From NCBI GenBank assembly GCA_034189385.1, contig JAXHVD010000024.1, forward strand, positions 1 to 63,742: a stretch of 63,742 bases of DNA, in the 5' to 3' direction. A program made the position numbers and the translations under genes. Shown here piece after piece: positions 13,801 to 42,744 of the stretch (position 1 is the stretch's first letter; each line of letters starts with the position of its first letter). The notes beneath the pieces were generated by a model. The model was given only the letters and a program-made list of their open reading frames with translations. It searched no databases and had not been told where the DNA came from. This DNA is from Thermodesulfobacteriota bacterium (GTDB lineage Bacteria; Desulfobacterota; Desulfobacteria; Desulfobacterales; C00003060).

Positions 13801-16800
13801 GCTCCACATACACGGCAAGCACCGTGGCAGGCGTGGCCAGTGCTTTCTTGACCAGCGCCACGACGGTGGGAACAGCGACCATTCGTGCCGAAGCGCAGGG
13901 CAGAACAGCTGAAATCGAGATTGACTATACCCCGGGAAGTTTGACCTTGACGATTATCCCCAACTCGCTCCTAGGCACGGGCGAGGAAAGCGCTGAGGTG
14001 ACGGCCACCCTGGAAGATGAGTTTGGATCTCCGGCATCGGGAGAGACGGTCCATTTCACGCTTGACGATTTGAGCTTAGGCACCATCACGCCTTCTGCCA
14101 TCAGCAATGTAAATGGCGAGGCGGAGGCGTTATTTCTGGAGTCAGGAAGAGGGGGCACTGTAACGGTGACTGGAACCTGGTCCACGTCTGGCGTAGAGGT
14201 CACGGGCTCGGCAACCATCGACATCCAGGCCCCGCCTGCCTTTATCGAAAACGCTGAAGGCTCTCCTGTCCCGGCATCCATCAATATTAAGGGCACAGGC
14301 GGACAGTCCACATCCTTGATCACCTTTGATGTGAAGGACTCTAGCGGCAACCTGGTGGCCGACGGCTACAGGATCGATTTTTCCTTGGACAGCGGACCCA
14401 ACGGTGGAGAAAACATCGTTCCCCTTTCTGCAAGGACAGCAGGTGGACAGGTGAGCACAATCCTCTATAGCGGGTTTAAGTCTGGCCCCGTAGCTATCAA
14501 GGCAACCTATCATCACGACAGGAGTATCAGCACCACGACCAGCCAGATTGCCATTAACGGCGGGCCTCCTGTGGGAGAAGAGTTCGGGATATTCGCCGAG
14601 TATGTGAATATATCCGGATACTGGATGGCCAACCTACAGGACAACATCAGCATCAATGCCGGAGACATCTACGGTAATGCCATACCGGATGAGACGGCCA
14701 TCTCATTTAAAACATACAACACCGGTGGGTTCTTTACACCGAATACGGCCACGACCATAGAGGGATTGGCCACGAATGTGCTCCACTCTGCGGGAAGCTA
14801 TCTGCAACCGCTTCAGGGTTTTCTTTCCGTCACAGGAGAGGCCATTAATGGAGGCAGAACTACTCATGTTACGTCTCTGGTGGTAAATCCCCTGAGTAGC
14901 AATATTTTGTATGCTGGCACAGACGGCGGCGGTGTGTACAAGTCCATAGACAGCGGCGCCACGTGGGTGAACATCAGCCGCTCGTCTGAGAACGAAAAAC
15001 AGGGCCAGAACTGGATCGATCCGCACGTCAAGGGAAATAGCGCCATATGCGTTGATCCGGACGATCCCAACCGCATCTATGTAGGCACTGGATATCTGGG
15101 CAGGGGCCACGTGTACCGCAGCCTGGACGGCGGCATGAACTGGAACAGCAACAATGTGGAAGAATGGAACGGAATACTCGATACAGACGAGGCAATTCTG
15201 ACAGTGCTATGCGATGGTGGCGGAAGCGACTATGTGTGGGCAGGGACCGAGGGCCTGGGAGCGATTTTGGCCACTGACGGGGAGACGTTCCAATGGGGAG
15301 GTGTCGTGACGCCACCGACAGACCCAGGAGCAGCTAATACCGGTACGGGAACCATGTCGCAGCCTACCCTGAGTGCCTCTTCCCAGACAGAGACATGGAC
15401 CGCCACCTACGAAAAAACAGGGGCCACTCCCTCAATGCCGGCCTTTACGGATGTGTCTGGGGCTGGTGCCGACGGGACCATGAGCAGTATCTCGGCCACG
15501 GAAACGGCCGAAACGGGCACCTGGACCATGACCTACACCGGCGGATACGACGCTGTGACCGGTGTTACCGGTACAGGTACGGCCCAAGGAACACTGACAG
15601 TGGTTGCGACTTCAGCCAGCACATTATCGGAAACCTGGACAGTCCGCTGTATCGTGGGAACGGACGGGAGTGAGGAGTTCTCTGTAACAGGCTCTGTAAG
15701 CGGAATTCATGATACAGCGAACTTGACCGAAAATTATGATTGTAGCGAGGTGACATTTTATATCATCCAAACGGGAGATTTTATTGGCGGGGAAGTTTTT
15801 AACTTCGACACCGACCAAGATGCCTGGGATGTCGAATTTGATGATGGGATCAACCCACCGGTCTCGCACGATGCAGCGAGAACGGGTGTAGCCTACACCT
15901 CTGACAACGGTGAGGTCTCTTTTACCATCAATTCCGGTGCCAACCGGTTCTATCAGAGAACTGACGAATGGACCTTTGACACCACCATTACGGGTGACTG
16001 GGAAGTTTTCGGCACAGTGTCCGGAACACAGTTTAATAGGGCGCGAAACAATGTGGCATACACCTCCGACAACTATGAAGTGAGCTTTCTCATTTCCGAA
16101 GGGGCCACGCCCTTTGATCCTGGCGATGACTTCACCTTTGACGTCACAGAGAGCGGGTTAGGTTACGGAAAGGTCGTCAGGGATATGGTGAAGGTACCAG
16201 GTACCCATGGGGCCACAGCCGAGCTGTATGCCGGCACGAACACAGGGGTCTTCACGAGTACTGATGGCGGTGTGCTGTGGAATCCCACCACCCCCTTTAC
16301 CGGGGATTTCATCACCACCCTGGCGGTCCATCCCACAATAGCCGGTGTCGTATATGCAGGCACTGAGGATAATGGTGTATGGGTAAGCGTTGACAGCGGC
16401 ACGACCTGGGTCCAGTACACCACTGGAATGGGCGAGGGTTTGAGTGCCACACCCCCTATGGCTGACCCGAACAATGTGGGAAGCGGCGTCATCAGTGCCG
16501 TGACCGTAAGTGGCACAACACCATCAGAGTATTGGTCTGCGACGTGTAATCAAGCGGCCTCAGCCACGGCTCCGGCCCCTGGTGCCAATACAGGCGACGG
16601 CACCATGACTGCGGTGACCGTTGATCCTACGAACACGGTGACAGAAAACTGGACAGTGGCGTGTAATCAAGCGGCCTCAGCCACGGCTCCGGCCCCTGGT
16701 GCCAATACAGGCGACGGCACCATGAGTGCCGTGACCGTTGATCCCGGCCATGCGCTGACAGAGGACTGGACGGTCACTTGCACGGATACTGCCCCTGACG

Positions 16801-18041
16801 GAGGGACTTTCAGCGTGGAAGGCACTATTTCAGGTGAGCAATACGCTACGGCCTCTGTAGGCACCGAATACAGGTCAGACGGCGACGAGGTCCGGTTTAC
16901 CATATCAGATGGAAGTATTGACTTTCAGGTCGGGGATTCCTTTACCTTCTCGACCACTGGTCCCACCACCTTCAGTGTGTCAGGGACAGTTTCAGGGCCA
17001 CAACCGAACGTAACAATAGGGTGGGCCTACACATCTACAACTGGCGGGGTCTCTTTTACCATATCAGATGGAAGTACTGATTTTGAGGTCGGGGATATCT
17101 TCACCTTCTCGACCACTGGTCCCACCACCTTCAGCGTCACCGGCAGCGTTTCAGGGCCGCAGGCAGATGCAACGGTAGGCGTGCCGTACACATCCGGTCT
17201 GGGGCAGGTTTCCTTTACCATATCAGACGGGAACATTGATTTCATCATGGGCGATTCCTTCACCTTCAGTACCACCAGGGATCCGGGCCAGACCATCACG
17301 GATCTTCAGGTGGTGACCGACGACGATCCAGCGGACAACGATCAATTGTATGCCATCACCTATTTCTGGGGTCCCCTGGAGCCCCATGCCGTGGGCAATG
17401 TCTATGTCCATCCCTTAGACGACGCTACAGGCGACATGGAAGCTGCAGGTAGCTGGACCGAGGCAAACACCAGCCTCCTTCCGGCCTATGATCCGCCCGA
17501 TGACATGGCGCTCTTTGCCCAGCATGTCATGGCCTTGGATGACTCTGTGAGCCCCAGTTCCCTTTACATAGGTGGGGAGGGGATCAATCTCTACAAGGCG
17601 ACTAGCGGGTTGTTCTCAGGTGCGCCTGCTTGGCAGGAGAGCAAGAGCGGGCTCACAAATCTGATTATGGCCAGGATGCCGATTCTTTTCACCGGCCCCT
17701 GTACCATGTCCATTTCTACAGACACAGAGGGCAGCACCGTTACCTTTACCGTTTACATCGAGGACGAAAACGGCAACCCGCCAGTAGAAGGCTCGGTCTT
17801 TTTTGCAGAATATGCGCCAGAGAGCGGCGACGACGTGGTACTGGCAAATGTCACCTATCCTGATTGTTATGTCCACCAGGGCACTTTCAGGGACCCTGGC
17901 GACCCCAGTACGAATGATCCATACGTATTCATTGTAACCGTGTTCCCAGGAGACAAGGTGACTTTCACGTTCACCCCATGGTGTACGGACGGAGCCCCTG
18001 GCTGTTCTGGTGCCATTCAAGAGCGAACATTCCAATACTAG
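1845..18041 (+). CDS. Giant (5398 aa) invasin/intimin-like Ig (Big_1) repeat lipoprotein with C-terminal Asp-box beta-propeller; putative adhesin
   Basis: Lipobox FALLIS-C followed by GSSGGGSG. Dozens of 'L.ADG.S.STI.A.VTD..GN.V.DG..V.F.T..G' repeats. Asp-boxes YKSIDSGATW, YRSLDGGMNW, TSTDGGVLW, VSVDSGTTW. Uninterrupted 16.2-kb ORF. Confidence 0.9.
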   Translation: MKRKYLRNGVMIMAMFALLISCGSSGGGSGDDVKTAAIALSVSPTVIPADGISSATVTASLTDNSGTAVPEETSVTFSTTLGSFPNGSHTYNVKTPDDSGTVTVSLIAATIIGNADVVAESSDVTQKAALEFIDASLIPRKISLSTSQISVKSDNSDSATITATVLDAYNAVVEGITVAFSATGGQLGAASADTDANGQAVVTFSSGSAGPSNQVVTITATVTDLEPAQIPIQVLGSTLTLATDKTQVSSDGLVSAILTATAKDAGGTEVYNAPITFSVPETGGGSVKLSSFEVRTGVTGEAKVTVTGTRAGSVTVFAEGLGETASQEYRVTPPGTDFFHISEPTDDPANLSIGEDLAITVTAPAPTTSVVFVATFGAWDGGSSSVVTQTVGNGSVSAVFSSPLAGVASIQVYDEDNPSDADSMEIVVSAAIPDAAHISLQSNSYVVPLSSGGNSYSATLTASVRTSFASGRQPVGGASVAFSLDNQTGGGETIFPAIVFTDDSGVATTTFTSGSLSSGAEGVEISATVLGQGATGSLTTIAFNDTNADTITRSDAGSFVTDGFQAGEQIRVEGSANNDGDYTIASVSGKTLTLDSNDSLTAEAAGSTVTITAVTSSINIVVGGTSGSIVIGRGSKIEILSPTTYSLPMSVLVADSNGNPQSGAVVSLSAWPTFYSTGGWLPRVEESTDQDTNITTQKVLDICDGYITGTYPNEDANENLFLDPGEDTGADPGHGDGQLTPPNSAAGNIPMTVTTEANGVANFELVYMKSSAMWIVDRIRASTVVLGTETTSSMSFRLPYEKSEAEGCELPNSPYNPTAGSLAVDKITLTALPNNMTADGSSTSTIFAEVTDVKGNPVDGEVITFELTAGTGTLSAQKATTSGGVATVTYTASDTPGTVTITASADNGVTASVDITLIEAIVGSVSVTAGSDSVVANGTSQVLIMATVVDQNGKNVADGTAVSFTTTAGGLSNISSTINGVATATLTSSISVGTATIEATAGGVIGRTTVDFIPGPVRNIQLTATPMNLTADGSSTSDIRALVTDKNGNVVNGETVSFAIISGSGELDAAIKTTDGGGGVAEVTYTASRTIGTETVRARTTNGVSATVNITLIGPVIKEVDCQVGCESGVTGDTPTPAPGPTPCPPEDPVLVHAFVLDINGNPVLDGTPVTFTTTLGTFQGAPAPGTIIVEYTDNGNGEVTAMLVPSTRVGTANIAVWAGGVCCKKTVEFIAGPAATISLTATPSTLVADGTSKSVIRAYVTDEYGNPIDGETVSFSPASLGLLSDATAETNNGGGAAIVTYTAGTTAGTDTITAWTSNGHSDSVDIALVPEETTGFISLTADPTSIVADGVSTSVLTATLTAAGGDPMVGVPVAFYSGPAAFSPDLPPNNTYKGTTEESKDPFHSNGGSTTFTFFHDGSSAFAVDLCEYGTTDCLDLFNAPGVVNGSTVETNLDAGDYYLDVGKASGEWSIKIEGDIERVRIQPSGDTLLAMVDTDTNGDAETTYTSTTQTGLVPITAVSGELKAEVEIEQIPGSPENLDLWSNSRIAANGVSYSTITAEVTDAYYNPVPGAAVNFSATAGTISPTTELTDTRGRAGALLTSIYSNVLVTSTVTATVDGLTESITDEFVPVTLRLRATETTGKKANGTDSYTITAQIQEASSNQPMSDTIVTFSYSGNDGIVTVEPVATETDDNGIATCKVMDISSIDDPVIISATSGAVASVGMIGLVFTGTGGGGTPVGSVKVAATETTGKKANGVDSYTVTAQVLDAVGQPIEGAGVTFSASGNSGLVAMNPPVATTAQDGTATCEVTDISDISDTVDISASSGGVNSANSITLHFAVPAGPGVPASLGLATSQISVKSDNSDSATITATVLDGDNAVVEGITVEFSADGGQLSTSKAQTDANGEARVEFSSGTVDQSNRVVTVTARVSGLPDSQIPIQVVGSTLTLTTDNNVVTSDGITTATLTILAKDAAGTPVYNTPITLTSTGSGTVTISPSSGNTDILGKLEVTVTGTSAGDVTVTAEGLGTTATQDYEVILAGAVFFRIIQPQSDPVTWNTLDSGPVAITGPSTQIAFADADPDTITRSDGGDFTVDGFSDGDRIMVGGSSSNDTDTGIGTPSYYTIDTVTPNTLTLVATDQLTTEAAGASVVIANSILVRVEAPPPTASVKFATTFGTWDGGASPVVTKNVVGGSVWAVFSSSQAGVATIHVTADDDPTSFDSLEAVISAPSADAAHITLQSNTYVVPLSLGNASNTATLTASVRTSSATGRQPVGGAAVAFSIQNQTGGGETVFPVIVYTDASGIATTTFTSGSLSSGSEGVTITATVLGQGSTGPLTTISFNDTDPDTITRSDGGSFMTDGYQAGEQIRVQGSGQNDGWYIIDSVAADTITLEAGDTLTDEPEGSAVTITAVTASTNIVVGGTAGSLVIGRGSEITVLSPTTYSLPMSVLVADSNGNPVPGTTVSLNAWPIQYSTGEWVEVIILTDQYCEAKITGTYPNEDVNENLFLDPGEDTGNDPGHGDGELTPPNSAAGTVPMTVTTDANGVANFDLVYMKSSAMWIVDRIQASTLVLGTETTSSMTFRLPAEKTEAWLCELPDSPYNQELPVNHINLTATPSNLTADGSSTSIIRAEVFNEKGLAVEGEVVSFDLAAGTGTLSVPTATTDDQGVAEIIYTVSTTSGIATITATTDNGTTATVNIELIEALVGSITCEVGCDEIGVGGGTAIQVSATVLDKNGKNVLDGTPVTFTTTAGEFQDPDDPLTPTIKTVNTFKGVAAANLFSPDNVGTATIKIIAGGVCCETSVAFVPGPAAVLSLRATPNNLTADGWSQSTIRALLTDANGNAITGETISFSVSTTGTSSGELSSYTATTSEGIATVTYTASTESGEIDTIRAEATDSSVFGTADITLIDVVVGMVSVSAGSGTAVADGSSQTLITAAVQDTKNNNVADGTMVTFTTSAGDIDNVTPGNQTTFNAPTTNGVAKAWLVSPTNVGTAAVIATVGGVLDSATVTFISGSPDTIQCTATPNNLTADGWSESTIRALVTDANGNVVSGETISFSVTTTGTIPGELSPYTAVATDGIATVTYTASREAGVTDTIRAEATDSTIFGTVDITLVDVVVGTVSVSAGSDTAIADGSTRTLISATVQDNLGNNVADGTTVTFTTMAGTFEDPDDPLTPTTKTADTTNGVATAWLISATNVGRTIITATVGGVTDSTEVNFIAGAVGNISLAAVPNNLTADGASESTIRATVTDADGNAVADGEVISFSLSTITGSLSAPTATTEGGIATVTYTAATTSGTETITAVSTNGTTATVDITLIEATIGSVSVSAGTEYIIANETSQSLIMATVLDTLGNPVVDGTTVTFTTTAGTFDDPDDPLIPTIKTADTTNGVASVYLISAANVGVGTVTATVGGVADTTEVYFIAGAVDAISLVAVPNNLTADGASQSTIRATVTDADGNAVADGELISFSLIPGSTGSLSAPTATTEGGVATVTYTVPLTAGTETVTAVSTNGTTETVDITLIGATIGSVSVSAGTDEIVADGTSWSLITATVLDTLGNPVADGTTVTFTTTAGTLSNITTTSLGVAYAELTSATNVGVAKVTATAGGVADSAGVSFIAGAVGNINLFASPNNLTADGSSESTIRATVTDASGNAVADGEVISFSVTTGTGTLNVPTASTEGGVATVTYTASLTAGTETVTAVSTNGVTETVNITLIGATVGSLSVSTGTEEIVADGTSQSLITASVLDTLGNKVADGTLVTFTTSAGEFLGADPLTPTTIDVATTYGLATASLISATNVGTAFVSATSGGQGDNTTVTFIPGPVYNISLTALPNNLPADGTSTSDIRAYVIDRYDNAVEGEVITFSATCVSGSCGTLSAPTATTEGGVATLTYTASSAGGNETVTAEATNGVSDSVNISLTGLQIASIELSASPSSLPADGVSWATINATVSAVGGGQAPDLTPVNFEIIDGGGSFSGSSTYTASTVAGVASAFLTSATTVGTATIRAEAQGRTAEIEIDYTPGSLTLTIIPNSLLGTGEESAEVTATLEDEFGSPASGETVHFTLDDLSLGTITPSAISNVNGEAEALFLESGRGGTVTVTGTWSTSGVEVTGSATIDIQAPPAFIENAEGSPVPASINIKGTGGQSTSLITFDVKDSSGNLVADGYRIDFSLDSGPNGGENIVPLSARTAGGQVSTILYSGFKSGPVAIKATYHHDRSISTTTSQIAINGGPPVGEEFGIFAEYVNISGYWMANLQDNISINAGDIYGNAIPDETAISFKTYNTGGFFTPNTATTIEGLATNVLHSAGSYLQPLQGFLSVTGEAINGGRTTHVTSLVVNPLSSNILYAGTDGGGVYKSIDSGATWVNISRSSENEKQGQNWIDPHVKGNSAICVDPDDPNRIYVGTGYLGRGHVYRSLDGGMNWNSNNVEEWNGILDTDEAILTVLCDGGGSDYVWAGTEGLGAILATDGETFQWGGVVTPPTDPGAANTGTGTMSQPTLSASSQTETWTATYEKTGATPSMPAFTDVSGAGADGTMSSISATETAETGTWTMTYTGGYDAVTGVTGTGTAQGTLTVVATSASTLSETWTVRCIVGTDGSEEFSVTGSVSGIHDTANLTENYDCSEVTFYIIQTGDFIGGEVFNFDTDQDAWDVEFDDGINPPVSHDAARTGVAYTSDNGEVSFTINSGANRFYQRTDEWTFDTTITGDWEVFGTVSGTQFNRARNNVAYTSDNYEVSFLISEGATPFDPGDDFTFDVTESGLGYGKVVRDMVKVPGTHGATAELYAGTNTGVFTSTDGGVLWNPTTPFTGDFITTLAVHPTIAGVVYAGTEDNGVWVSVDSGTTWVQYTTGMGEGLSATPPMADPNNVGSGVISAVTVSGTTPSEYWSATCNQAASATAPAPGANTGDGTMTAVTVDPTNTVTENWTVACNQAASATAPAPGANTGDGTMSAVTVDPGHALTEDWTVTCTDTAPDGGTFSVEGTISGEQYATASVGTEYRSDGDEVRFTISDGSIDFQVGDSFTFSTTGPTTFSVSGTVSGPQPNVTIGWAYTSTTGGVSFTISDGSTDFEVGDIFTFSTTGPTTFSVTGSVSGPQADATVGVPYTSGLGQVSFTISDGNIDFIMGDSFTFSTTRDPGQTITDLQVVTDDDPADNDQLYAITYFWGPLEPHAVGNVYVHPLDDATGDMEAAGSWTEANTSLLPAYDPPDDMALFAQHVMALDDSVSPSSLYIGGEGINLYKATSGLFSGAPAWQESKSGLTNLIMARMPILFTGPCTMSISTDTEGSTVTFTVYIEDENGNPPVEGSVFFAEYAPESGDDVVLANVTYPDCYVHQGTFRDPGDPSTNDPYVFIVTVFPGDKVTFTFTPWCTDGAPGCSGAIQERTFQY

Positions 18042-23036: not shown

Positions 23037-24404
23037 TCACTTTAGATAGAGCTTCTTCTCCCTTTCCACCACATCAATAATGTCGTAGATGATGGTCGGC
23101 ATTTTCCGCAGCACCCGCTCCCAGGACACGGTTTGAGGGGTTTCAAAGACCTGGTCTCTCGCCTTTTGGGCTGTTTGGGAAATGGCCTGCAACAGACCAG
23201 AGGAGAGGAAGGGTTCAAAGGCCTCGTGGCTTCCCACAAAAGAGGTGAATCTATCCACCAGACGATAGGGGGAAATGAGCAGATCACCGGCATGAAGGAT
23301 AGCGTTCTTTACCACGCCGTGGACAACGGCCTCTTCCTCATTGGTATCATAATCTAGACCGGAAAAGGCAGCGTTATCAGCATACATCTTGATGAGGTTG
23401 TCTGCCACATTCAAATAGGTCACCGTCAGATCGCGTATGAAATGATCTGAAATCTCAACGCCTTCTTCAACGACTAGGGCCGTCAGCAGGGTTGTGACGA
23501 TGTCCACCGCCATCTTGTGGAGCCCCTTTTCTTGGTCTGCCTGCGATACCTTTTGGTGCTTGTGATCAAAGGGCTCGTAAGAGATCTCCACTTGGGCGGC
23601 AGTCGTGGCCTTCCGATAGACCTCAATGAGTGTGAAGATCTCCACGCCCCAATTCATGGCAAAGTGCATACGTTTGAGCAGGCTGGTATCAAAGATCACC
23701 TCGCCTGAGAGCTGATAGTTGAAATTTAGGAGAAAATCGATCAACCGTAGGATCTTTTCATCCTTTGTGTCTGTGAATTTCCGTTTTAAGGCGATGAGCA
23801 GGGGGTCCAGCAGGAGCCTTTTGACCCGGCCGTACATCTTTCCGTTGTGTAGTCGTGCGTAAAAGGCTTTGGAGAATTGGTAGTTTAGGGCCAGAACAGG
23901 ATAGAAAAGCCGGTCCAGTTGCTCCCGCCGAAAGGTGCGGATATCTGCATCGATAAGTCCCACGCTCTGGGCACCAAGGGCGATGGCGATTCCAAAAGAG
24001 AGAAAGATGTTTCTGCCCTTCCCACGCATGTCAAGGGCAAACCCTGCCTCGGAGAGCTTCTCATAAATGGCCGAGAAACCAGGACCGTCATTGTGTTGAA
24101 TGAGGCAGTTTTTCAGCTCATACCGATCAAGGAGACGTGTCAGTTCCCGGACATCTTCTGCCTTGGCCTGATCCAAACCGAAAATGATGCGAGACAGGTA
24201 GGAGGCAGAGCGGAGCTGCTTAAGGATGTTTTCAAAGACAGGACGATTCTCCCTGTTCGTATACTCCGATGCCAACAGGGGGACAATGAGCACGGCCTTT
24301 TTCCATTTTGACTGATGGCGGAGTTCTGCTTTTAAGGTAGGGTTGGATTTTGAAAGGAGATAAAAGGTCGTAATCTTAGTATGTTTCTGGGCAAAATTGG
24401 ACAT
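23037..24404 (-). CDS. Glucosyl-3-phosphoglycerate synthase-like GT-A glycosyltransferase
   Basis: GKGRNIF, DAD motif (GLIDADI), KAFYAR...YGRVKRL, NWGVEI, FDHKHQ. Confidence 0.8.
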   Translation of the reverse strand: MSNFAQKHTKITTFYLLSKSNPTLKAELRHQSKWKKAVLIVPLLASEYTNRENRPVFENILKQLRSASYLSRIIFGLDQAKAEDVRELTRLLDRYELKNCLIQHNDGPGFSAIYEKLSEAGFALDMRGKGRNIFLSFGIAIALGAQSVGLIDADIRTFRREQLDRLFYPVLALNYQFSKAFYARLHNGKMYGRVKRLLLDPLLIALKRKFTDTKDEKILRLIDFLLNFNYQLSGEVIFDTSLLKRMHFAMNWGVEIFTLIEVYRKATTAAQVEISYEPFDHKHQKVSQADQEKGLHKMAVDIVTTLLTALVVEEGVEISDHFIRDLTVTYLNVADNLIKMYADNAAFSGLDYDTNEEEAVVHGVVKNAILHAGDLLISPYRLVDRFTSFVGSHEAFEPFLSSGLLQAISQTAQKARDQVFETPQTVSWERVLRKMPTIIYDIIDVVEREKKLYLK

Positions 24405-24758: not shown

Positions 24759-27700
24759 CTAGTATACGTGGGGGTCGCTTTTTTCACTCAAGGAGTTAAA
24801 CCCCTCCCGCCACGAAAGCTTTCCGCTCTTTGTTACCCCTGGATTCACCTGCTCTATATCAATAATGGCTCCAGTGCTGGTCTGAACATAGGCCACGGAG
24901 CCTGCTTCACTGCCGGTGTGGAGATTTGGCGTTGTGGTATACCCTTTCCCAGCATAGACCTTTGGCAGGACGAAGCCGCTTCCGCCGTCCCTACCGGTCC
25001 AGTTGTTCTCCGCCGTCAACAAGGCCCCTTCCACATAGGCGGTGCCCGTTTTGTAGTAAAGGCCGTAGAGGTAACTAAACCCTTCGGAAGTACACAGATC
25101 GTTACTGGGAAGGTAGGTGGTAAAGGAAACGAGATGTCCCAAGACCGCCGCCTGCCCTAAGTTCCGCTCTCCGGTCTCGCTGTAATTGAGATACCAGCCG
25201 TCTTTGGCCCTCACCTCTTCTTCAAGGTCGGAAAAGTCGATTTTCCCGTCGCCGTTTTGGTCCATGACGGCCGGGCTTCCCCCAAGGATGGTCTCGTAAT
25301 CGTAAATCCGGATACCGGTCACGTTTCTCAGGGTGGATTCTTTTGCGCCCACCGTCCCATAGGTCATCTCATTGTTGAGATCCACCGGCTCTTTAATACC
25401 GTAATAGGCATTTTGATGGCTGAAATAGGGCTCTTCTCGATCCAGCCTGCCCCAGAGGCGGCCCGTGCCGAAATATAGCCAGATTCTGCCTTCATCATCC
25501 TTGGCCACCGACAAGGCGGTGTTGATGTGCTGGTGGTCCGCCCCTGTGGTGTTGGGATTGAAGAAAAGGGCTTTCGTCCAGAGGTTAGGATCTATCAGAG
25601 GGTTCCCGGTGTTATCTGTGGTCTTTATCCTAAAGACCCGGCCCTCCGCTCAGGCCCCGCAGCCGTCTGTCCCCACATAAATCGCTTCACCGCTCCAGGA
25701 CACTGCATCGCCAGGTCCTGGCTCAGGCGGGTCTGTGGTCAAGTCGAAATCGACTGCAACGGGATCGGATGCAAAGCTGTGGCCATCGAGGAGGAATTCC
25801 CTTTCCAGGCTCCCCGTCTTGGCATTCAAGACGTACAGACTGGACGTGCGGTTGCTGCCGCCCCAATTGGTCATGTGGATACCGTCATCTTTTCGGGTGG
25901 CCTCGTAATCGACCGGACCGGAGCCGATGACCACAAACCATGCGTTGCCCACGCGGATGGGGGTGGGGTTCGCCGTGGTAAAACCGAGGTTATCGTCGGT
26001 GAAGGTCCACAACAAGTCGGGAGGATGTTCCGGGTTGGTGATGTCTAGGGCAAAATAGGTGGACGTAAATTCAAGGTCGCACAGGCCGTCATGGTCTACA
26101 TCTACACCAATAGGGGCGCCGCCCAGGCGCATCCCACCAATCAGGACGGTGCCCCAGCCCTCTGGATGATCACTATCTGCCGAAAAGATCTTCGCATCAA
26201 AAATCCGGGGTTTCAAGTCCACAAAATAGACGTGGGTGTTTGCGCCCGTCAGTTCCTTGAGCCATTTCAAATGGGGAAGGATCGCATTCGGGACGTAGGC
26301 CCAGAGTTCGGTCCCCAATTCAAATGGTGTCTCCCCATCCATCTGTTTTACAAAGGCATGGTTTGCCTTGTCATAGAAGCCTCCATTGAAGGCATGGAGC
26401 ATCCCGTCATTAGCCCCTGCATAGACCACGATCCTGCGTTTTAGATACTGTTTCCTGAAGAGCTGATAAGAACGGTCCCTGTAAAGCATGTCATAGGCCT
26501 CCACAGGCTGGGAAACCACCGTGGGGGTGGAGTGGATAATGTCTCCCATCCGAAGAACCGTATCACCAGTGCCGTTGTCATCCATATCGAGGGTGCGATT
26601 TCTGTAGGGGATGTTCGAGCCCGTTTCCGCCAGGCCTTCCTGGCCCCGCACGAACTGAATGATGTTTTGAGCCTCTGTGATCATCTCCTCTTCCGTGAGG
26701 GCCACATGAGGCGTTCCAGGGTCGCCGTCGGAGTCATAGGTGAGGTAGGGGTTCAGGAAGAAATAGTTATCGTTCGCCAGGTCGTTTACAAAACCAGGGG
26801 TAAAGGGCATGATATCGCCGCCATACACGTTGGCCATGGATACCGGAGAGGTGGTATCGATCTTGTTGGTGAAGATGTACCGCTTCTGATCCAATGCCCC
26901 ATAGGTCCTCTGGCTGAGGACATCCATGTTCGGGTCAGAAAGCCAAGAGGTGGAGTCCCAGATGTATTTGAGGCCCATGATACCTACATCTTGTTCAGAA
27001 ACAGTCTTCTCTCCGGTGTCCGGATCATAGGTATACAGTTTTGCCAATGCCGTATCTCCGTCAAACTCAATGATGCGGTCCACACCGCGATCAAGCATGG
27101 CATTGCCATTGGTGTCTTCGCGCATACGGCCCTCCTCGTCAACAAAGAGGGCATGGACCTCACCAAACCAATTTACGGCGTCTCCGGACAGGTCGTAAAC
27201 CACAGGAAAGAATATGGCCTGATAGATGGCTCCTTCTCCTGCGCGGGATGCTGAGATGACAGATGCGGCAGAACCGGCCGCAGCACCGGCCCTGATATTA
27301 CTGAATACCCTCCTCAGCGTGTCTTCCAAATCCCCGGGATCAGCCGGGTTGTAAAGGGAGGTTCCTCCATTTTGGGCTGCACTGGCTAAGAGAATATCAG
27401 GGCTACACTCATCACCGCTTCCCGTGGAACGCAGGCTGCCGGCGGCCACGATGTGGGTGGTGATTTTTAGCTTGTCCTCGCCATCCATCTGTTCATTACC
27501 TACAGGATAGATGTCGCCGTTGTGGGCAAAATAGGTAAGATCGTCCAGAGAAGTGCTGCCGTCCAAGGAGCCGCAAAGGTTGCTGTCTCCGGCATCACCG
27601 TCATTCTTGCCAGCCTGCCCGATAAAGGCGGCCACCGTGGAATTGAGGTCTGCCGTTGAAGCGCCTTCAGTGATGATAAGGACATTGTTGCCTTGACACC

Positions 27701-29807
27701 AATATTGAATGGGGTCTGGATGGTCCGCATCCATGATGAAGTCATCAGCATCCAGCTTAAGAGCACTATTTTGCGTGTAATACCCTATGGCGGTGTACAT
27801 GGCCTCAGCCAGAGGGGTCCAGCAGGTGGCTTTGATGTCGTTTATGGCCGAGGCCAGATCGTCTGTGTGGACCTCGCCCTCGTCTATATAGGCAACGATC
27901 CTTCCGCCGTCTCGATTCTCCGAATCTGCGCAGTTGTAAAGGATCTGGGGGTCCGATTGATCACACTCGCTCTTGGAACCGTAGTCATTAAAGATCATGG
28001 CGCCGATGCGCAGGTCCTCGGAGAACTCATGAATCAGACCTGTGGGGGGATTCTCATGCTGGATGTACCCCTTGAGCACGGCTAAGGGCTCCCCCTGCTG
28101 GGCGGCCATGCCAGAGTCTATGAGTACGGCAGGGATGTTCCAGAACTCTCCGGTTTCACCTGCCTGGTCGCTTGGGTCAATGACCTCTGGGATCTCAAGC
28201 AACCCGCAATATTCCTGAAGGGCCGCCTCGATGCACGCATCCACACTGGCGTATCCGGCAGCATCCCAGCCTGCACCGATCCCGCCGGAGCACTCCCACT
28301 TCTTGCAACATTCAGGATCAGGCGCCACATGAGGCAGGCATTTGTTGGGGTTCCACCATTGCGTGCAGACACAGGTCGCATCCTCCCCCGGGTTCCAACA
28401 GCGGCCCACATAGCCGAAGGGGTTCGGGTTCGGCGCCGTATCCATGTCATCATCATAGATTCCAAAGCACACGTAACCCCGATCGTCCGTGGTGATATCC
28501 CACGGGTCTGTACCCCAATCTGTGTATATCTTCTCGCAGGAGTTGGCTACGCTACTGACCGGCCCTGCGCCTGGGGGCCATATGCCGTGCTTTGCCTGAT
28601 ACCAGCAGTTGTGAATGCCGTGGTTGAAGGCGGCGTGGGAGTCTGCCTCTTTGGTTTGGCCCCCTCCTGATTCATACCCCATACAGCCATCGATGTATTG
28701 CTTTAACGCGCCCTGGTTGGGAGAGGCCTTCTGAAGCTCTTCGATGGCCAGCTCACAGTCGCTGTGGTCAAAGCCTTGCTCGGTGACGGGAAATACCTCA
28801 ATGTAGGTCACATTGTAGCTCACCCAGTCCGTTATGCCGATGTCATCGGCCACACCGGTGCCGTTCGCGGTGCCGCCCGTGGCCGTAATGTACATGTTGC
28901 CCCCATCACTGACGATGCTGTTGGCCGGATAGACCGCTCCATCGGTCCATCGGCTAAGGGTGTAGGGGACCCAGTCGGTGACACCCGTGTCATCGGCCAC
29001 GCCGGTCCCGTTTGAGGTGCCGCCCGCGGCCGTGATAAAGTGTTCTAGACTATCTGAAACCACACTGCCGGCAGGATAGTAGGTGTTGTTTTTCCACACC
29101 GGGAAGGTTTGTTCCTCAGGCGGTCGTATGCCCAGGGTCAGGTAGTAGAGCGTGCCGGCGCCGGTATATACGTCCACTTGTTTGACAAGGATCTTTCCCA
29201 GGCAGCCCCTTGATTCCATCACGATCCGGCCGTTTGGGGCACCATAGGTGCCGGCTTCTTCATACTTGCCTCCGGTGAGGATCTTTTTCTGGATGTCCAG
29301 CTTTGAGGCCGTGGCCCAGTTAAGGAAATTGCCCTTTGTGAAAAAGGCGGTTACCGTATCTCCATCCACCTTGATATAGATATCAGTCTGACTATACGCC
29401 GTGCCCGCAGGGTTGGTCCATTCAGCCGGCGTGGCAGTGGTGGCCCAGTCCTGTGTTCTTTCCTCAAATTGTCCATTTGCCTGATTGTAGTAATACCAGT
29501 AGTCCCGATCAAAATACCCGGCATAGAAGTTGGCCGTGTCATAGGTGTCATCGTAGCAATAGCTCTGGTCGTCCACATAGGCGAGATCGTACATGCTGCC
29601 CGAATTATCGAGCATCAAAAGGAGATTTGCCTTGACGCTGCCCCCCAAAAAGGGTGGAAGGGCCAGGTAATCTCCCATGCTATAGCTACAATCGGCCCTG
29701 GCAAAGAGGGGGCAAAGGAGGGCCCACCATGAAACAATGAGCAAGCAGACGACAGCTTTTTTGTGTTTGCCCTTTCCCATGGACATGGCGTGTGTTAGGG
29801 TCTTCAT
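24759..29807 (-). CDS. pilY1: PilY1/PilC pilus tip adhesin; one 1682-codon frame with an internal TGA at 25650-25652 (Sec candidate or nonsense mutation)
   Basis: vWA-like LLLMLDNSGSM; propeller motifs MGDIIHSTP, YAGANDGMLHAFNGG, ELWAYVP, WGTVLIGGMRLGG, WLYFGTGR, GWYLN. The 1385-aa and 251-aa ORFs are in the same frame and joined by stop-free AEGRVFRIKTT...HINTALSVA. Confidence 0.9.
25620..25638 (-). promoter_or_regulatory. Candidate bacterial SECIS hairpin GGTCTTTA-GGA-TAAAGACC
   Basis: Perfect 8-bp stem starting 11 nt after the in-frame TGA, with a loop beginning with G. Confidence 0.55.
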
Positions 29808-29971: not shown

Positions 29972-30619
29972 CTACATGACATGTCTCCAGCGCAGCCTTA
30001 TCCTGCCCACGGCATCTCCCTGTCCAAAATGATCGGCAAAGATGTCATAGACCATTTGCGCGCCACCTCCTGCCGATGATTTGCCTTTGCCCTCATAGCC
30101 TGCCGCCATCTGGATGGCGCCGCCTGTTGACAAGTGGGAGTTCGCGCCGATATGTAACCAAGTGTTATTGACTAACCTTTCATCTGTTTCGTCGGTGAAG
30201 CCATCACCGTCGTTGTCGCCACCATCCATGCCCTCGTCGGCCAGAGCGGAGTTCACGTTGCCTTTTGGGAATAGGAAACATGCATCAGGGTTGCCCAAGT
30301 TGTCCGGGTCGGGAACAGTATTGAGATATAGCGTCGGTGACGGTCCGCCTACAGCTCCTACGTTAAAAATTCCCTCTGTATTTGCATCGAAACCAGTCTC
30401 TTCAATGTTCTGTTCAACAAGTTCGATGCCGACCTCCGTTCCTCCCTCAGCAGCAAAGAAGGCTATCTTCTGCCACTTGTTATTGCCGGTGATATGGGTC
30501 TCTATGTTACTCGTTGTAGTGGCGGCAATCCCCACGATAGTAAGGAGCACCAACACCAGTAAGCTAATAAGGGCCACGGCCCCTTTTTCGTTTTGTACTG
30601 CTTGAGCTAGTGTCGCCAT
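29972..30619 (-). CDS. pilX: Minor pilin PilX
   Basis: NEKGAVALISLLVLVLLTIVGIAA...AFFAAEGG (PilX N-terminus lacking Glu5); operon order. Confidence 0.85.
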   Translation of the reverse strand: MATLAQAVQNEKGAVALISLLVLVLLTIVGIAATTTSNIETHITGNNKWQKIAFFAAEGGTEVGIELVEQNIEETGFDANTEGIFNVGAVGGPSPTLYLNTVPDPDNLGNPDACFLFPKGNVNSALADEGMDGGDNDGDGFTDETDERLVNNTWLHIGANSHLSTGGAIQMAAGYEGKGKSSAGGGAQMVYDIFADHFGQGDAVGRIRLRWRHVM

Positions 30620-30628: not shown

Positions 30629-31111
30629 TTAGATGATTCTGGCCTTGTTGTACTCAACAGACACGCTCCGCCGAACTCCCTCGCCTGCCCATGTGACAAT
30701 CACCGAAATGGTCTTGGTGTTGGTGATCGGGTAATCCTCGGCAACATTCCAATAGAGATTGTACGTCTGAGCAACTCCACCCTGCCGAATGGGATTTTTT
30801 GGATGACGTTCATCTGGCTCTTTTTGTTTCGCCGGATCTGGCTCATCAGGATTGTTCTCGAGGCCGGCTGTCCCAGTATCTACACCGTCACCGTCGGTCA
30901 AGCGCACATCGTCATAATCCCAGAACATCATCTCTTCGATCTGTCTTTGAGCCAATGCCGTTGCTTCGGTCAACTCTCTGGCATACTTGTTGGCCGCAAC
31001 AGACCTCATCTGCATCGTCCCAACGGCAAAGACGCCGATACTGAAGACGACAATGGCCAACATCACCTCCATCAGCGTGAAACCCTTCTGACTCTTTTTC
31101 ATCTCCATCAT
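30629..31111 (-). CDS. pilV: Minor pilin PilV
   Basis: KG-FTLMEVMLAIVVFSIGV; TKTISVIVTW. Confidence 0.85.
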   Translation of the reverse strand: MMEMKKSQKGFTLMEVMLAIVVFSIGVFAVGTMQMRSVAANKYARELTEATALAQRQIEEMMFWDYDDVRLTDGDGVDTGTAGLENNPDEPDPAKQKEPDERHPKNPIRQGGVAQTYNLYWNVAEDYPITNTKTISVIVTWAGEGVRRSVSVEYNKARII

Positions 31112-32145
31112 ATCCCCATGTTCCTACATTTTATCTCTGTCTCTGAAAGCCGCATACGACGAAGATGCACACGATAATTAGGAGAAGCGGGCATTCCCTT
31201 TTCAGGGTGAGTGGATGGGGTAATGACCTGATTGCCAACGACATACGTATGGTTGTTTACGAACTTGCGATCCATCCTGGCCGATCTGACGAGCATCCAA
31301 ATGCGAACTTGGCGGATATCGTCTACAGGCACGTCCGCGATGGCATTTCCATCAAAGTCAACCAGTGCTTGACCGGCTATAATACCGTTGGTACCTTCGC
31401 CAGGCCCGTCCTGGGCATCAATATCGCTATCGCCATCGGTATCCAGGTTTGTGTCCAGATCATTGTCGCCATCTGAATCAATGGCCCAGATAACCACTTC
31501 ATTCCCCCCCGCATTATAGGTGTCCAGATCACCGTCTCCGTTTGCATCAAAGGCATAGGCAAACCCAATGGCTTGTACGTTTTCAGCGACAAACTCTTCT
31601 TCCGGAAAGGCCGGATCTGCTGGCGCAATGGTCGCATCTTGCCTTCTGAGATCATTGTCATTATCGCCGTCTATATCGAAGAGGGAATAGGTGATGTCTT
31701 CATTGATGTCATCTAGGACGCCGTCACCGAATCGGAATTCGTTCCCTTCGTCTGCTTCGTCGGTGAAGCCATCACCGTCGTTATCAATGCCATCGGTGTC
31801 CTCGTCCACAATGCCGTCTTCGTCATTGTCGATACCGTCATTTTCACCACCGGCTGTATCCGTAGCAAACCTGATAGAGTTGGGGGCCGCAGTCTGAATC
31901 CCCGCCCCTGCCAGGCCGGTCTCATCGTAACCGGCCATCCGGATTTCTCTTTCCATGAAATACATGGCGGCCCTAAGGTTTTGCTGCATGACAGCCACCT
32001 GTTCTTGGTTTACATATGATACCTGCTGGGCCTTGTACGCCATGAAGATCGCACTTGCGACAATGCTGGATATAGCCATGGCCACCAGAATCTCAATCAA
32101 TGTGAAGCCATTGGTCTTCAGGCCTATGAGTCCCTTCTGTTTCAT
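31108..32145 (-). CDS. pilW: Minor pilin PilW with acidic DxDxDG repeats
   Basis: NG-FTLIEILVAMAI; MQQNLRAAMYFMEREIRMAGY; IRQVRIWML; RNMG. Confidence 0.85.
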   Translation of the reverse strand: MKQKGLIGLKTNGFTLIEILVAMAISSIVASAIFMAYKAQQVSYVNQEQVAVMQQNLRAAMYFMEREIRMAGYDETGLAGAGIQTAAPNSIRFATDTAGGENDGIDNDEDGIVDEDTDGIDNDGDGFTDEADEGNEFRFGDGVLDDINEDITYSLFDIDGDNDNDLRRQDATIAPADPAFPEEEFVAENVQAIGFAYAFDANGDGDLDTYNAGGNEVVIWAIDSDGDNDLDTNLDTDGDSDIDAQDGPGEGTNGIIAGQALVDFDGNAIADVPVDDIRQVRIWMLVRSARMDRKFVNNHTYVVGNQVITPSTHPEKGMPASPNYRVHLRRMRLSETEIKCRNMGI

Positions 32146-32154: not shown

Positions 32155-32757
32155 TTACCCTCCTGAGGCATCCCCCCAGCTACCGTCAGCGGGGAACCAC
32201 TTTCTGGAAAAGACAACCCCATTGGTCCTTGTGCCCACTGCATAGGTGTGCCGCTGGGCCACGGCCTTGGTTCTGTGGTTCTCCAGATACACATAGCCGG
32301 CATTGCACATACCCCTGGAATCGAATACCACGACATTGGCGGTGTAACTTATGTCATTTGCTGGGAAGGCACCCCCGGCGGCACTGGCATTGGTGGTGGC
32401 ATGCCCGTGGCCATAGTCGATCTCGCTGCTATACGCGACTAATCGCGCCTCTTTTACCTGGGTGTCGTTACCGCCCATCTGGGCCGGCCCATCCCAGCCA
32501 TCTCCGCCATCATCTGAACAGATAAAATACCTTCCAGGGGTAACACTGTTGTCAAAGACCATGGCCCAATTGGCGTTAGCCTTTATGGCGCCCAGCTTTG
32601 TGTGTTGCATGTTGGAATACAGATCCCTCGCGGCCCTCATCAGCCTTTGATGGTGTTGCCACTCCATGAAACTGGGGCTGGCAACATTGACCAAAATCGC
32701 AAGCAAGGCGATGGCCACCATCAATTCCACGATTGTCAATCCCGAATCTCTGCGCAT
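32155..32757 (-). CDS. FimT/FimU (GspH-like) minor pilin
   Basis: SG-LTIVELMVAIALLAIL; RLMRAARDLYSNMQHTKLGAIK; VFDSRG. Confidence 0.85.
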   Translation of the reverse strand: MRRDSGLTIVELMVAIALLAILVNVASPSFMEWQHHQRLMRAARDLYSNMQHTKLGAIKANANWAMVFDNSVTPGRYFICSDDGGDGWDGPAQMGGNDTQVKEARLVAYSSEIDYGHGHATTNASAAGGAFPANDISYTANVVVFDSRGMCNAGYVYLENHRTKAVAQRHTYAVGTRTNGVVFSRKWFPADGSWGDASGG

Positions 32758-34278: not shown

Positions 34279-36489
34279 TCAGAGAGGTATGCGTGCCATC
34301 CATGGCCATTCATAAAGGGCACGGTCTTTCGTGAGCAGCATCAACACCCCTGGCAGGACCTTAGATCCCACCACATGCAGGGTGACCTCTCTGGTAGTAT
34401 CTCCACTGGAGGTGTTGCTAAAATAGACAGTAGCGCTATAGGTGCCCGTCTCAAGGCTATTGGCACGGTTGTCAATGGAGACGGTCACCATGATGCTTTC
34501 ACCAGGATTCAAGGTGCCGCTGGACGGCGAAGACAGGGTCAGCCAATCTTTTTCCTCGGTGACTTCCCAGCCGAGGGGGGTGTCCGTCGTGTTCTGGAGG
34601 ACATATCTCTTGCTCGATGGCGAAAAGGCGCCGCTTTTGGAACCTGAAGAGCTTAATCCTGTAGCAGGAGTTACAACAAAATCGTCATAGAAAAGGGCCC
34701 CATCGGCCATGACAATTCCTGCTCCTGAATCGCGATCCCAACCCGAGTCTTCAATATCCAGGGCTGAGCCAGTGAGGGCCGCACGGACCTTAGCAGGGGT
34801 AAGAGCAGGCTTTTTAGAAAGCAGCAGTGCTGCAACAGCTGCTGCATGGGGGGCCGATGCCGAGGTGCCGTAAAAGGGGTTGAACCAAGACGTGGCCGTG
34901 GCCACGCCATCGGCTGCGGTCAGGTCTGGCTTTAACCGGACCTCGCCGCCGGTGGAAGAGACGTCTCCAGGGGTGATGGCTGTCCCGTCCGGGTCATAGA
35001 AGACCCGGCGCGGCCCGTCACTGGAAAAGGTCTCTACAGATTCGGTTCCGTCAAAGGCGGTGGTTCTGCCTTGAGCATCCACGGCTGCCACTGCAAAGGC
35101 CTGGGCGGCAGCTTGGTGGCCTTTGATTTGACCTGCCGTGCCATGTTCCAGCCGGCCCCGGTAGGTGTTAAGGTGGATGAATCGATCATTGTCTCCCTCG
35201 GGCATGGTGATGACAAGGAGAGTGTCTGTATCATTGCGATCCCCGCTGCCGATGAACTCATAGGGGTCTTGAGTACCATTTTGAACATTGTTTGAAACAG
35301 CCCGTATCTCGTCACCACCTGGACTCAGCAAATAGAGGTCATAGTCCTTTGTCGAGGCCCCCAAAGGATCTGCCCAAAAGAGACCAATGCCAAAGGGCGG
35401 ATCGGTAGTCAGCCTGTTGGTCGCATCGCCTCCCCCAAAATCGTGGACTGTCATACCAGCAAGAACACCGGGAAGAGAACCGTCTTCTATACCTTTAGAG
35501 TCTCCCTCCCACACACCGGATTGGCCATCGTTCAGGTTCCCAGAGTTTCCGGCAGAGGAGAAATACAAGGCACCGTTATCAGTGACGCTATTGACGGCCC
35601 GAGAAATGACATCGTCTTGAAAGGGCGATTCATTAAAATAGCCCACATCGTCCACAATGACATGGCAACCTGCCGCTCCCAAGGCCTCGATGTTGGCTGC
35701 AAAGCCTGCGGGCCCCTTCCAGGCCGTGGCAAAATAGAGCTCCGCCCCTGGGGCCAGATCATGGACAATTTCCAGCATGGCCGTCCCCTCACCAGTAAGC
35801 CCAGGGGAATCTTCCAGCACAGTCACGTCTGGCAAATCCCACGTCGCCTGAACAGTGGCCAGATAATCCACAGAGTCGGAGAGGACCCCGATTTTCACCC
35901 CTGAGCCGTTCACACCAAAGCTGTCCCTGGCTAGGGCCGCACTGTGGGCCACATTCCCCTCTGAGGTATTGACCTTGTTTGTGAAGGCCCTGGTTGCCGG
36001 TTCGATGAACCGGATATCCTCATGGCCTGCCAGGGGCTCTATCTTTTCCAGAGGCATGCGGGCCCGTATGGCCTCGTACTGCTCAAAACTGTTGATGACC
36101 GTGCCCCCTAATCGGTCTATTTCCTCCAGGAGGCCCGGCGTCACCCTGGCCTTAATGTCCACAAGGACGGTGCGGTCCAAGGCAATGTCAAGGGTGGATC
36201 TCAGCGAGGGGACCCTTTCCACAAGGGGGGCCCGCTTTAACACCTTGTGTCCATAGATGAGCCTGGAGTCCAGTTTCTTCTGGGCAGGGGTTCGCCATGC
36301 CTTTTCTTCCCGCAAGGCCTGAATCTGCCCCAATGCCTTTTCAGTCATTCTAAAGGGTCCTTTAGTGGCCTTCTGCGCAAAGGCCACACCTGTTGACAGG
36401 GGACTTGCTGCTGCCGAGAGGGCGACAAACCAACTTATGAGAAAAAATAGAAAAGGGGACTTCATGTATCTGCTCCGGACCCAGCCCAT
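34279..36489 (-). CDS. Secreted subtilase-like (S8/S53-like) serine peptidase with a C-terminal BACON-like domain
   Basis: GVKIGVLSDS, GEGTAMLEIVHDLAPGA (Glu where subtilisins have His), SSAGNSG, FSSDGP, KPDLTAADG, GTSASAPH; WLTLSSPSSGTLNPG. Confidence 0.85.
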   Translation of the reverse strand: MGWVRSRYMKSPFLFFLISWFVALSAAASPLSTGVAFAQKATKGPFRMTEKALGQIQALREEKAWRTPAQKKLDSRLIYGHKVLKRAPLVERVPSLRSTLDIALDRTVLVDIKARVTPGLLEEIDRLGGTVINSFEQYEAIRARMPLEKIEPLAGHEDIRFIEPATRAFTNKVNTSEGNVAHSAALARDSFGVNGSGVKIGVLSDSVDYLATVQATWDLPDVTVLEDSPGLTGEGTAMLEIVHDLAPGAELYFATAWKGPAGFAANIEALGAAGCHVIVDDVGYFNESPFQDDVISRAVNSVTDNGALYFSSAGNSGNLNDGQSGVWEGDSKGIEDGSLPGVLAGMTVHDFGGGDATNRLTTDPPFGIGLFWADPLGASTKDYDLYLLSPGGDEIRAVSNNVQNGTQDPYEFIGSGDRNDTDTLLVITMPEGDNDRFIHLNTYRGRLEHGTAGQIKGHQAAAQAFAVAAVDAQGRTTAFDGTESVETFSSDGPRRVFYDPDGTAITPGDVSSTGGEVRLKPDLTAADGVATATSWFNPFYGTSASAPHAAAVAALLLSKKPALTPAKVRAALTGSALDIEDSGWDRDSGAGIVMADGALFYDDFVVTPATGLSSSGSKSGAFSPSSKRYVLQNTTDTPLGWEVTEEKDWLTLSSPSSGTLNPGESIMVTVSIDNRANSLETGTYSATVYFSNTSSGDTTREVTLHVVGSKVLPGVLMLLTKDRALYEWPWMARIPL

Positions 36490-40533: not shown

Positions 40534-41724
40534 ATGAGGACAAAGTGCAGCATTGGCAGGGGGGCGGCTTTTCTGGTAGCCGCAGTGCTTTTCGCGGTTT
40601 TCCTCGTGACGCCGGTGATGGAGGTTGAGGCCGCTGACCCTTACAAGGTGGGGGCCGTCTTCTCGGTCACGGGCCGGGCCTCTTTTCTGGGTGACCCTGA
40701 AAAAAAGACTGCCGTCATGCTTCAAGAAGAGATCAACAAAAAGGGCGGGATCAACGGCCATCCTTTGGAACTGATCGTCTATGACGACGAGGGAGATGCT
40801 ACCAAGTGTGCCCTGGCCGTAAGAAAGCTCATTACTCAGGACAAGGTCTGTGCCTTTATTGGACCTTCCTTGAGCGGGCTTTCCCTTGCAGTGCTCCCAG
40901 AGGCAGAAAAGCACAAGATACCCATGGTCTCCTGTGCGGCAAGCTACAAGATTGTGACCAAGGACCCTGAGACAGGCGAACAGTGGAAGTGGGTATTCAA
41001 GACCCCGCAGTCCGACAGCATGGCGGTGGAGGCGATTTACACCCACATGAAGAAGAACGGCATCTCCAAGATCGCCGTCCTGTCTGTGACCTCAGGTTTT
41101 GGTGCCAGCGGCAGGAGCGAGTTGCTGCGCCTTGCCCCGGACTTTGGGATGACCATTTTGGCTGATGAAAAATATGGTCCCAAGGACACGGACATGACGG
41201 CCCAGCTGACTAAGATCAAGGGGCTGGCTCCTCAGGCCATCGTGAACTGGTCTATCGGCCCCACCCAGGTCGTTGTCGTGAGAAATTGGAAAGAGTTGGG
41301 TATGACCAAGACCCCTTTCTACCAGAGCCACGGTTTTGGAAGCCGCAAGAACATTGAGCTCGCTGCCGGTGCAGCAGAAGGCGTGTTTTGTCCATTGGGG
41401 GCGTGTAACATTGCCGAAATCCTTCCGGCAGATGCCCCCCAGAAAAAGGTGACCATGGAATACCTCAAGGCCTATAAGGCCAAGTACAATGAGGGCCTGT
41501 CCTCCTTTGGAGGCCATGCCTGGGACGCCCTGTCCATCGTGGCCAAGGCCCTGGAGGCCGTGGGACCGGACAAGGCCAAGATCAGGGATTATGTGGAGAC
41601 CCTCACGGGTTTTGTGGGACAACACGGTGTATTCAACTTTTCGGCGAAAGATCACAATGGGCTGACCAAAGAGGCCTTTAACATGGTAGTAGTAAAAGAG
41701 GGAGATTGGGCATTGGCCCATTAA
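40534..41724 (+). CDS. Liv-type ABC transporter substrate-binding protein
   Basis: RBS GGAGGAG; signal peptide; EEINKKGGINGHPLELIVYDD, DMTAQLTKIK, GHAWDA. Confidence 0.9.
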   Translation: MRTKCSIGRGAAFLVAAVLFAVFLVTPVMEVEAADPYKVGAVFSVTGRASFLGDPEKKTAVMLQEEINKKGGINGHPLELIVYDDEGDATKCALAVRKLITQDKVCAFIGPSLSGLSLAVLPEAEKHKIPMVSCAASYKIVTKDPETGEQWKWVFKTPQSDSMAVEAIYTHMKKNGISKIAVLSVTSGFGASGRSELLRLAPDFGMTILADEKYGPKDTDMTAQLTKIKGLAPQAIVNWSIGPTQVVVVRNWKELGMTKTPFYQSHGFGSRKNIELAAGAAEGVFCPLGACNIAEILPADAPQKKVTMEYLKAYKAKYNEGLSSFGGHAWDALSIVAKALEAVGPDKAKIRDYVETLTGFVGQHGVFNFSAKDHNGLTKEAFNMVVVKEGDWALAH

Positions 41725-42705: not shown

Positions 42706-42744
42706 GCCTTATTGGCCGGTGTCTCAAGAATCCGGTTGCGTGAC

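Follow-up and report, generated by a model that had tools for sequence, protein, structure and literature searches.

The pilY1 gene examined here is interrupted by an in-frame TGA, which raises the question of whether this codon ends the gene or is read through and, if it is read through, which residue is inserted and what that residue could do in a pilus adhesin. The gene lies in the window, by which we mean the whole stretch of DNA that was analyzed (63,742 nucleotides; contig JAXHVD010000024.1 of the Thermodesulfobacteriota assembly GCA_034189385.1). Two annotated minus-strand ORFs (25650-29807 and 24759-25514) join into one pilY1 frame, whose sole internal stop is a TGA at codon 1386. The sequence-only reading of this DNA had described the pair as a single frame of 1682 codons with no other stop, and translation gave the same result. 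The TGA stands in the context YVGTDGCGA-TGA-AEGRVFRIK, where selenocysteine (Sec) at position 1386 would form a CxxU motif with Cys1383. We ruled out the downstream 251-amino-acid ORF as a separate gene, because conserved propeller strands are encoded between the TGA and the start of that ORF. The features of the gene are as follows.

24759..29807, minus strand: pilY1, a single 1682-codon frame if TGA 1386 is read through.
24759..25514, minus strand: 251-aa ORF from gene callers, corresponding to the C-terminal part of pilY1.
25650..25652, minus strand: in-frame TGA, predicted Sec1386; TGA in 15 of 15 hairpin-carrying DNA loci, window included.
25659..25661, minus strand: TGC, Cys1383, first residue of CxxU; TGC in 14 of 14 aligned loci.
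25620..25638, minus strand: predicted bacterial SECIS (bSECIS) hairpin, GGUCUUUA-GGA-UAAAGACC, which codes for (R/Q)VFRIKT.
25686..25751, minus strand: expanded loop D1353-E1374, which occupies the position of the EF-hand-like Ca loop of Pseudomonas aeruginosa PilY1 (profile alignment to 3HX6 and alignment rows).
24801..24830, minus strand: C-terminal KSGKLSWREG peptide; W1666 is invariant in 28 of 28 rows of alignment A5.

The identity of the gene was supported by its product and by its neighbors. The protein of 1682 residues contains 28 Cys; it has a signal-peptide-like N-terminus, judged by eye, and its N-terminal part is Cys-rich. Its C-terminal beta-propeller scored 28.3 bits against PF05567 (Pfam cut-off, 28.1). 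The predicted structure of residues 850-1671, in which Cys stood in for Sec, had a pLDDT of 76.9 and a pTM of 0.82, and its best structural match was P. aeruginosa PilY1, 3HX6 (Z 21.1, rmsd 3.2, 414 residues aligned). A profile alignment to the same structure gave an E value of 1e-50. A second model, of 283 residues, was set aside (pLDDT 52). Using Pfam, we found four minor-pilin genes preceding pilY1.

29972..30619, minus strand: pilX-like minor pilin (PF14341).
30629..31111, minus strand: minor pilin, PilV-like by position (PF07963).
31108..32145, minus strand: pilW-like minor pilin (PF07963, PF16074).
32155..32757, minus strand: minor pilin, FimU-like by position (PF07963).

The same order of minor-pilin genes was seen, by translation, at loci L043 and L044. 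The protein thus resembles the C-terminal domain of P. aeruginosa PilY1 (3HX6; PF05567) in propeller fold, sequence homology and placement behind minor-pilin genes. The pil operon is flanked by a gene for a 455-aa protein (23037-24404, minus strand), which has no Pfam match and is glycosyltransferase-like by eye, and by a subtilase with a BACON domain (34279-36489, minus strand). At the start of the window, a PilQ-like secretin gene (19-1746) is directly followed on the plus strand by a gene (1845-18041) for a 5398-aa protein with about 26 bacterial Ig-like repeats (Big_1/invasin D3). Toward the other end, a comM-like gene of the Mg-chelatase family is split into two parts (61514-62299 and 51881-52762, within 51881-62299, minus strand) by an element of roughly 9 kb encoding a large serine recombinase, a capsid protein, a prohead protease, a large terminase and a resolvase. 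The genome holds one member of the TGA-bearing PilY1 subfamily. A second, distant PilY1 is encoded without an internal TGA on the minus strand of contig C2, and it carries a DVNKDFRVD loop at the calcium-loop position.

We compared the region 3' of the TGA with the published constraints for bacterial SECIS elements. A hairpin exactly 11 nt past the TGA had been reported by the sequence-only reading, and we found it there: 8 Watson-Crick pairs close a 3-nt GGA loop, 19 nt in total, and the distance from the UGA to the loop is 19 nt. The upper stem alone had a folding energy of -7.2 kcal/mol, and the 40 nt starting at the UGA had one of -11.4. According to the available text of PMC13188914, bSECIS elements have a loop of 3-9 nt with a G in its first two positions, a stem of 4-16 bp, a distance of 16-37 nt from the UGA and an energy of -7.5 or lower. 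The pilY1 hairpin falls within these ranges (loop 3, GGA; stem 8; distance 19; -11.4 for 40 nt). As a background, we searched downstream of the 2020 TGA-ended open frames of the genome; a bSECIS-like hairpin of -5 kcal/mol or lower followed 189 of them, and 43 had at least 8 pairs. We therefore rejected hairpin strength as sole evidence for Sec; it is conservation, not strength, that exceeds chance. In what we take to be hydrogenase-like genes of the same genome, a TGA is followed by a hairpin with the same GGA triloop.

The possibility that the TGA is an assembly slip, raised with the original proposal as a matter for the reads, was addressed with a contig that Logan holds for run X1 (depth 41.8), which spans positions 25301-26076 and shows 0 differences from the window; the agreement speaks against such a slip, though it is not independent if X1, as may be the case, is the source sample.

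We then asked whether the genome could decode UGA as Sec. The sequence-only reading had made its proposal depend on selA, selB, selC and selD, and all are present: selA, selB and selD scored over their cut-offs, and there is one tRNA-Sec (selC), with G1 and G73. The selD gene itself contains a TGA. Three additional tRNA-SeC calls, obtained with ARAGORN at a lowered threshold, carried a pseudogene-level flag and lacked tRNA ends, and were treated as chance. Among G425 and G426, the genomes with the two TGA-bearing pilY1 loci of the genome scan, selA and tRNA-Sec were found in both; selB over the cut-off was found in G426 and not in G425, a small genome of 1.6 Mb. Elsewhere in the genome TGA is a normal stop, since 524 of the 1350 open frames longer than 350 codons end with it.

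Conservation was then examined in homologous DNA. The same in-frame TGA and an identical 19-nt hairpin were present at 14 other loci, in homologues at 57-69% identity. Two of these came from a genome scan that yielded four pilY1 loci: both close ones (65% and 63%) read DGCGA-TGA-LEG and carried the identical hairpin, the comparison at the site covering these two of the four. The other loci came from a metagenome scan with 23 loci, 13 of them at 51-69% identity; TGA and hairpin were found in 12 of the 13, the remaining one, L044, having neither. Among the 10 distant metagenome loci, the comparison at the TGA site covered L049, which has no motif. Most pairs of loci differ considerably (60-78% nucleotide identity), near copies being L030, L040 and L045 (81-94%). 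The hairpin was identical in 14/14 aligned loci. All six of its codons (GTC TTT AGG ATA AAG ACC) are frozen in the 15 loci, window included; among the other invariant degenerate residues downstream of the TGA, single-codon use was seen at 2 of 68 in these 15 loci. RNAalifold detected no hairpin covariation, because nothing varies: all 8 pairs are invariant in the 14 loci. We take the frozen synonymous sites to stand in for the covariation that had been proposed as a check. The Cys codon of the CxxU motif was TGC in every one of the 14 aligned loci and never TGT; possibly, it is part of the RNA signal.

Downstream of the TGA, no stop occurred in the aligned part of any of the 15 loci, over up to 230 codons; in L048 the frame covers only 60 codons and breaks at an N. 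Upstream, the frame is broken in L045 and L047, apparently through assembly faults. The codons from the TGA to the next start after it are conserved as protein and varied at synonymous sites. By these comparisons, the downstream frame appears to be under purifying selection in the 14 other loci. Several TGA-bearing pilY1 genes are followed by what is presumably a radical SAM gene and, where the contig reaches, by genes that we take to be haem-synthesis-like (stretches L030, 4137-6393; L039, 1419-5972; L047, 2092-3159).

Protein databases gave a consistent picture. In three lineages at 89-92% identity, pilY1 is split at the TGA codon, and contigs of matching length carry the remaining piece. 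In a protein profile search, 33 of the best 120 of 178 matches end exactly at DGCG[AGT] (in such protein-only rows the TGA is presumed), the 22 highest-ranking rows being close homologues of full length. Named homologues were labeled Desulfobacteraceae, Deltaproteobacteria or Thermodesulfobacteriota, with one Candidatus Tharpella sp. We examined the residue at the Sec position in 24 full-length close homologues: Cys was present in none of them, Gly was the commonest, and Leu, Ser, Glu, Asn and others also occurred. Trp was never found. The alternative that had been offered alongside the Sec proposal, a TGG-to-TGA nonsense change in a region where related propellers often have Trp, fails because no close homologue has Trp there; its place is taken by Gly, Leu and other small residues. 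DGCxxC was absent from the natural proteins compared, among the matches listed (150 and 120 rows). The upstream Cys was kept in 34/34 proteins classed as truncated at the site, a class assigned without regard to that Cys, and in 5 of the 24 full-length close homologues, being lost in 19. Some distant PilY1 proteins (P0067, P0068, P0088, P0089 and P0135) have two Cys in the loop equivalent to CxxU, and in some distant PilY1 the Cys spacings in the loop differ from DGCxxC.

To place these forms relative to one another, a quick tree of 66 rows was rooted at its midpoint. Truncated forms, 37 in all, occur throughout the subfamily, and groups of full-length forms nest between them; 10 changes of state are implied, at least 5 of them forced by strong branches. 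One old gain of the TGA followed by repeated losses would be the simplest reading. Gly at this codon, together with a missing Cys or hairpin, had been named beforehand as the pattern that would speak against Sec. A minority of homologues do show it; these sit among TGA forms on the tree, however, and look like losses. The CxxU motif is dispensable for PilY1 in general, because the loop is hypervariable and the motif was lost several times, also in G099, a Sec-competent genome whose pilY1 form has no TGA. The subfamily is patchy. None of 36 genomes of the same genus has it; 15 of them have distant PilY1 only (best 29-38% over long stretches), with no stop within the PilY1 matches. Among 400 genomes drawn from the order, and again among 400 drawn from the phylum, there was one member, in the same genome, G099, both times, plus one distant match each.

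We located the motif in the predicted structure. Cys1383 and Sec1386 (model residues 534 and 537) lie in a turn between strands 526-533 and 542-546, where the local pLDDT is 74. In the profile alignment it corresponds to the turn that follows the YAYAGD strand of 3HX6 and lies one strand past the calcium loop; the exposure of the turn and the S-Se distance are inferred. The protein differs from 3HX6 in its length and Cys content (1682 aa, 28 Cys), in having a Sec codon and CxxU where the strand equivalent to YAYAGD turns, and in the replacement of the Ca loop by a long insertion without the motif. In this expanded loop, D1353-E1374, Dx(D/N)xDGxxD is missing; a motif scan of the protein finds it at 1236 and 1516 only. 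The CxxU turn is at the opposite end of the strand that follows the expanded loop. The Dx(D/N)xDGxxD loop is common, not universal, in PilY1/PilC proteins, and its role is described in the available text of PMC13190605 and PMC8833165. The SWRE-type C-terminal end is conserved among homologues. The KSGKLSWREG peptide is likely, by analogy, a beta-strand that joins a PilX/PilK minor pilin; it is encoded downstream of the TGA and would be made only upon readthrough.

These observations show a real, conserved site in a PilY1 subfamily and make Sec decoding of the pilY1 TGA very likely. Sec is predicted at codon 1386 because the stop and an unchanged hairpin are kept in many distant relatives. The original Sec proposal gained strong support from the machinery in the genome, from TGA and hairpin at 14 other loci, and from a hairpin within the bSECIS ranges. 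A true stop, arising either as a shared nonsense change that leaves a pseudogene or as an intended division into two polypeptides, would leave the frozen hairpin unexplained. It would also have to accommodate a TGA retained in open-frame homologues that match at 57-69% identity, protein-level conservation with varied synonymous sites in the codons from the TGA to the next start, and a split inside one propeller blade that leaves the second part without an export signal. We regard it as scarcely credible, even though the codons GGA (Gly) and TTA (Leu) are one base away from TGA and gene callers find the downstream ORF. Insertion of Cys or another ordinary residue, through a selC* tRNA-Cys or a changed genetic code, is slightly less far-fetched and still highly improbable. 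A precedent exists in some deltaproteobacteria, where a selC* tRNA-Cys with a UCA anticodon reads Sec codons as Cys; according to the available text of PMC5389517, the marks of this selC*/CysRS* system are the UCA anticodon, A1:U72 with U73, a second selB, and a cysS* without an anticodon domain. No such system was found in the genome, which is 90% complete, so that a selC* locus could be missing. The tRNA-Sec has G1 and G73 and not A1:U72/U73, a single selB exceeds its cut-off, the additional cysS is fused to a cysteine synthase and is no truncated cysS*, and TGA behaves as a normal stop, all of which argue against this route. The fusion itself is a 791-codon frame (contig C14, about 40600-43000, minus strand) in which a cysteine-synthase-like domain is joined to the second cysteinyl-tRNA synthetase.

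According to our model, which we hold with good confidence on the strength of the comparisons above, a single pilY1 is translated through a conserved UGA that the hairpin recodes as Sec, placing Cys-Gly-Ala-Sec, likely with a reversible S-Se bond, on a predicted propeller loop. SelB, bound to the GGA-loop hairpin, would very probably deliver the Sec-tRNA as in the established bacterial pathway. By analogy with known PilY1 proteins, the full-length adhesin would very likely be exported and, at the pilus tip, its C-terminal strand would join the PilX minor pilin. Compared with Cys, Sec has the higher reactivity, and it is easily re-reduced. Cys1383 and Sec1386 may well pair as a selenylsulfide that is reversibly opened and closed outside the cell through exchange with thiols or sulfide, a step for which the balance is only somewhat favorable; the pairing is suggested because both residues are lost together and because Cys pairs occur in the same loop of distant PilY1. 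In anoxic sediment, such a tip could react to sulfur species or surfaces, or form bonds with them. Under selenium shortage, ribosomes would terminate at codon 1386 and leave a broken propeller with no licensing strand. Failed readthrough would be expected to block the pilus, since Neisseria gonorrhoeae requires the final 12 residues of PilC1 for piliation (available text of PMC12918778). Both 'redox-active' and 'selenium-dependent' are, for this PilY1, inferences.

Two other accounts grant the insertion of Sec and differ on what it does. The CxxU could be a soft-metal (or metal-sulfide surface) site or a structural staple, with no redox switch. As a staple would predict, distant PilY1 proteins carry paired Cys in this loop, some of the CxxU or UxxC proteins in Table 1 of PMC13188914 belong to metal transport or metal-binding families, and the canonical Ca loop adjoining the CxxU is degenerate. 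We nevertheless consider this doubtful: the alignments show no second ligand pair conserved near the site, and a staple should also occur as CxxC, of which none was found among the matches listed. Less likely again is that Sec serves mainly as a regulatory gate, readthrough tying full-length PilY1 and the pilus to selenium supply while the chemistry of the residue is minor. Retention of the upstream Cys in all 34 truncated forms, and its loss in 19 of the 24 without the stop, points instead to a chemistry of two residues. A gate would, on the other hand, agree with the lack of any Cys homologue and with the tolerance of Gly or Leu in homologues, and the second, TGA-free PilY1 of the genome could serve in its stead.

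The preferred reading, a Cys-Sec pair in a pilus adhesin, was compared with known selenoproteins. CxxU selenoproteins listed in Table 1 of PMC13188914 include GrdA, HdrA, SelW-like and AhpD-like proteins and an FCYXU TonB-dependent receptor. PilY1 resembles the SelB/bSECIS-decoded CxxU selenoproteins in its UGA within CxxU, its hairpin within the constraints and the full Sec machinery. It is unlike those catalogued in that the host is a pilus-tip adhesin and no Cys homologue was detected at the Sec position. No pilus protein is among the 119 families of that table, and 'pil' is absent from the available text; the PilY1 Sec family is, as far as that text goes, missing from this catalogue of bacterial selenoproteins. 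The main text of BSepDB, to which our statement is confined, has no pilus-protein wording. Full-text searches combining selenoprotein or selenocysteine with PilY1, PilC, pilus or adhesin returned only unrelated titles, subscription papers being outside their scope. NCBIfam 20.0 has no model, and 4 of 4 queries gave no family. Both bSECIS decoding and PilY1 are known; what is unusual here is the host protein and the lack of Cys homologues.

According to PMC12013277, all known selenoproteins have a Cys homologue, and the lack of one at the Sec position of PilY1, as judged from the homologues compared, departs from this usual rule. The missing Cys homologues may explain why the PilY1 family is absent from selenoprotein catalogues. 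Because the Cys-homology filters of current searches discard families of this kind by design (PMC12013277), more may be hidden. In databases, no fewer than 33 clusters of these adhesins are at present cut in two at the equivalent of codon 1386. If our reading is true, a pilus adhesin would join the bacterial selenoproteins, a group that otherwise consists mainly of enzymes, redox carriers and transporters, as a selenoprotein family without detected Cys homologues. Pilus assembly would be tied to selenium supply, and a reactive Cys-Sec pair would sit where contact with surfaces is first made. More tentatively, and short of an even chance in our judgment, a subfamily of tip adhesins of sediment anaerobes may have gained, on the propeller, a redox centre that is only ever Sec and never Cys, forming a selenium-licensed reactive type IV pilus tip that would depend on UGA readthrough for its assembly and whose Cys-Sec pair would sense or bond sulfur species or mineral surfaces outside the cell.
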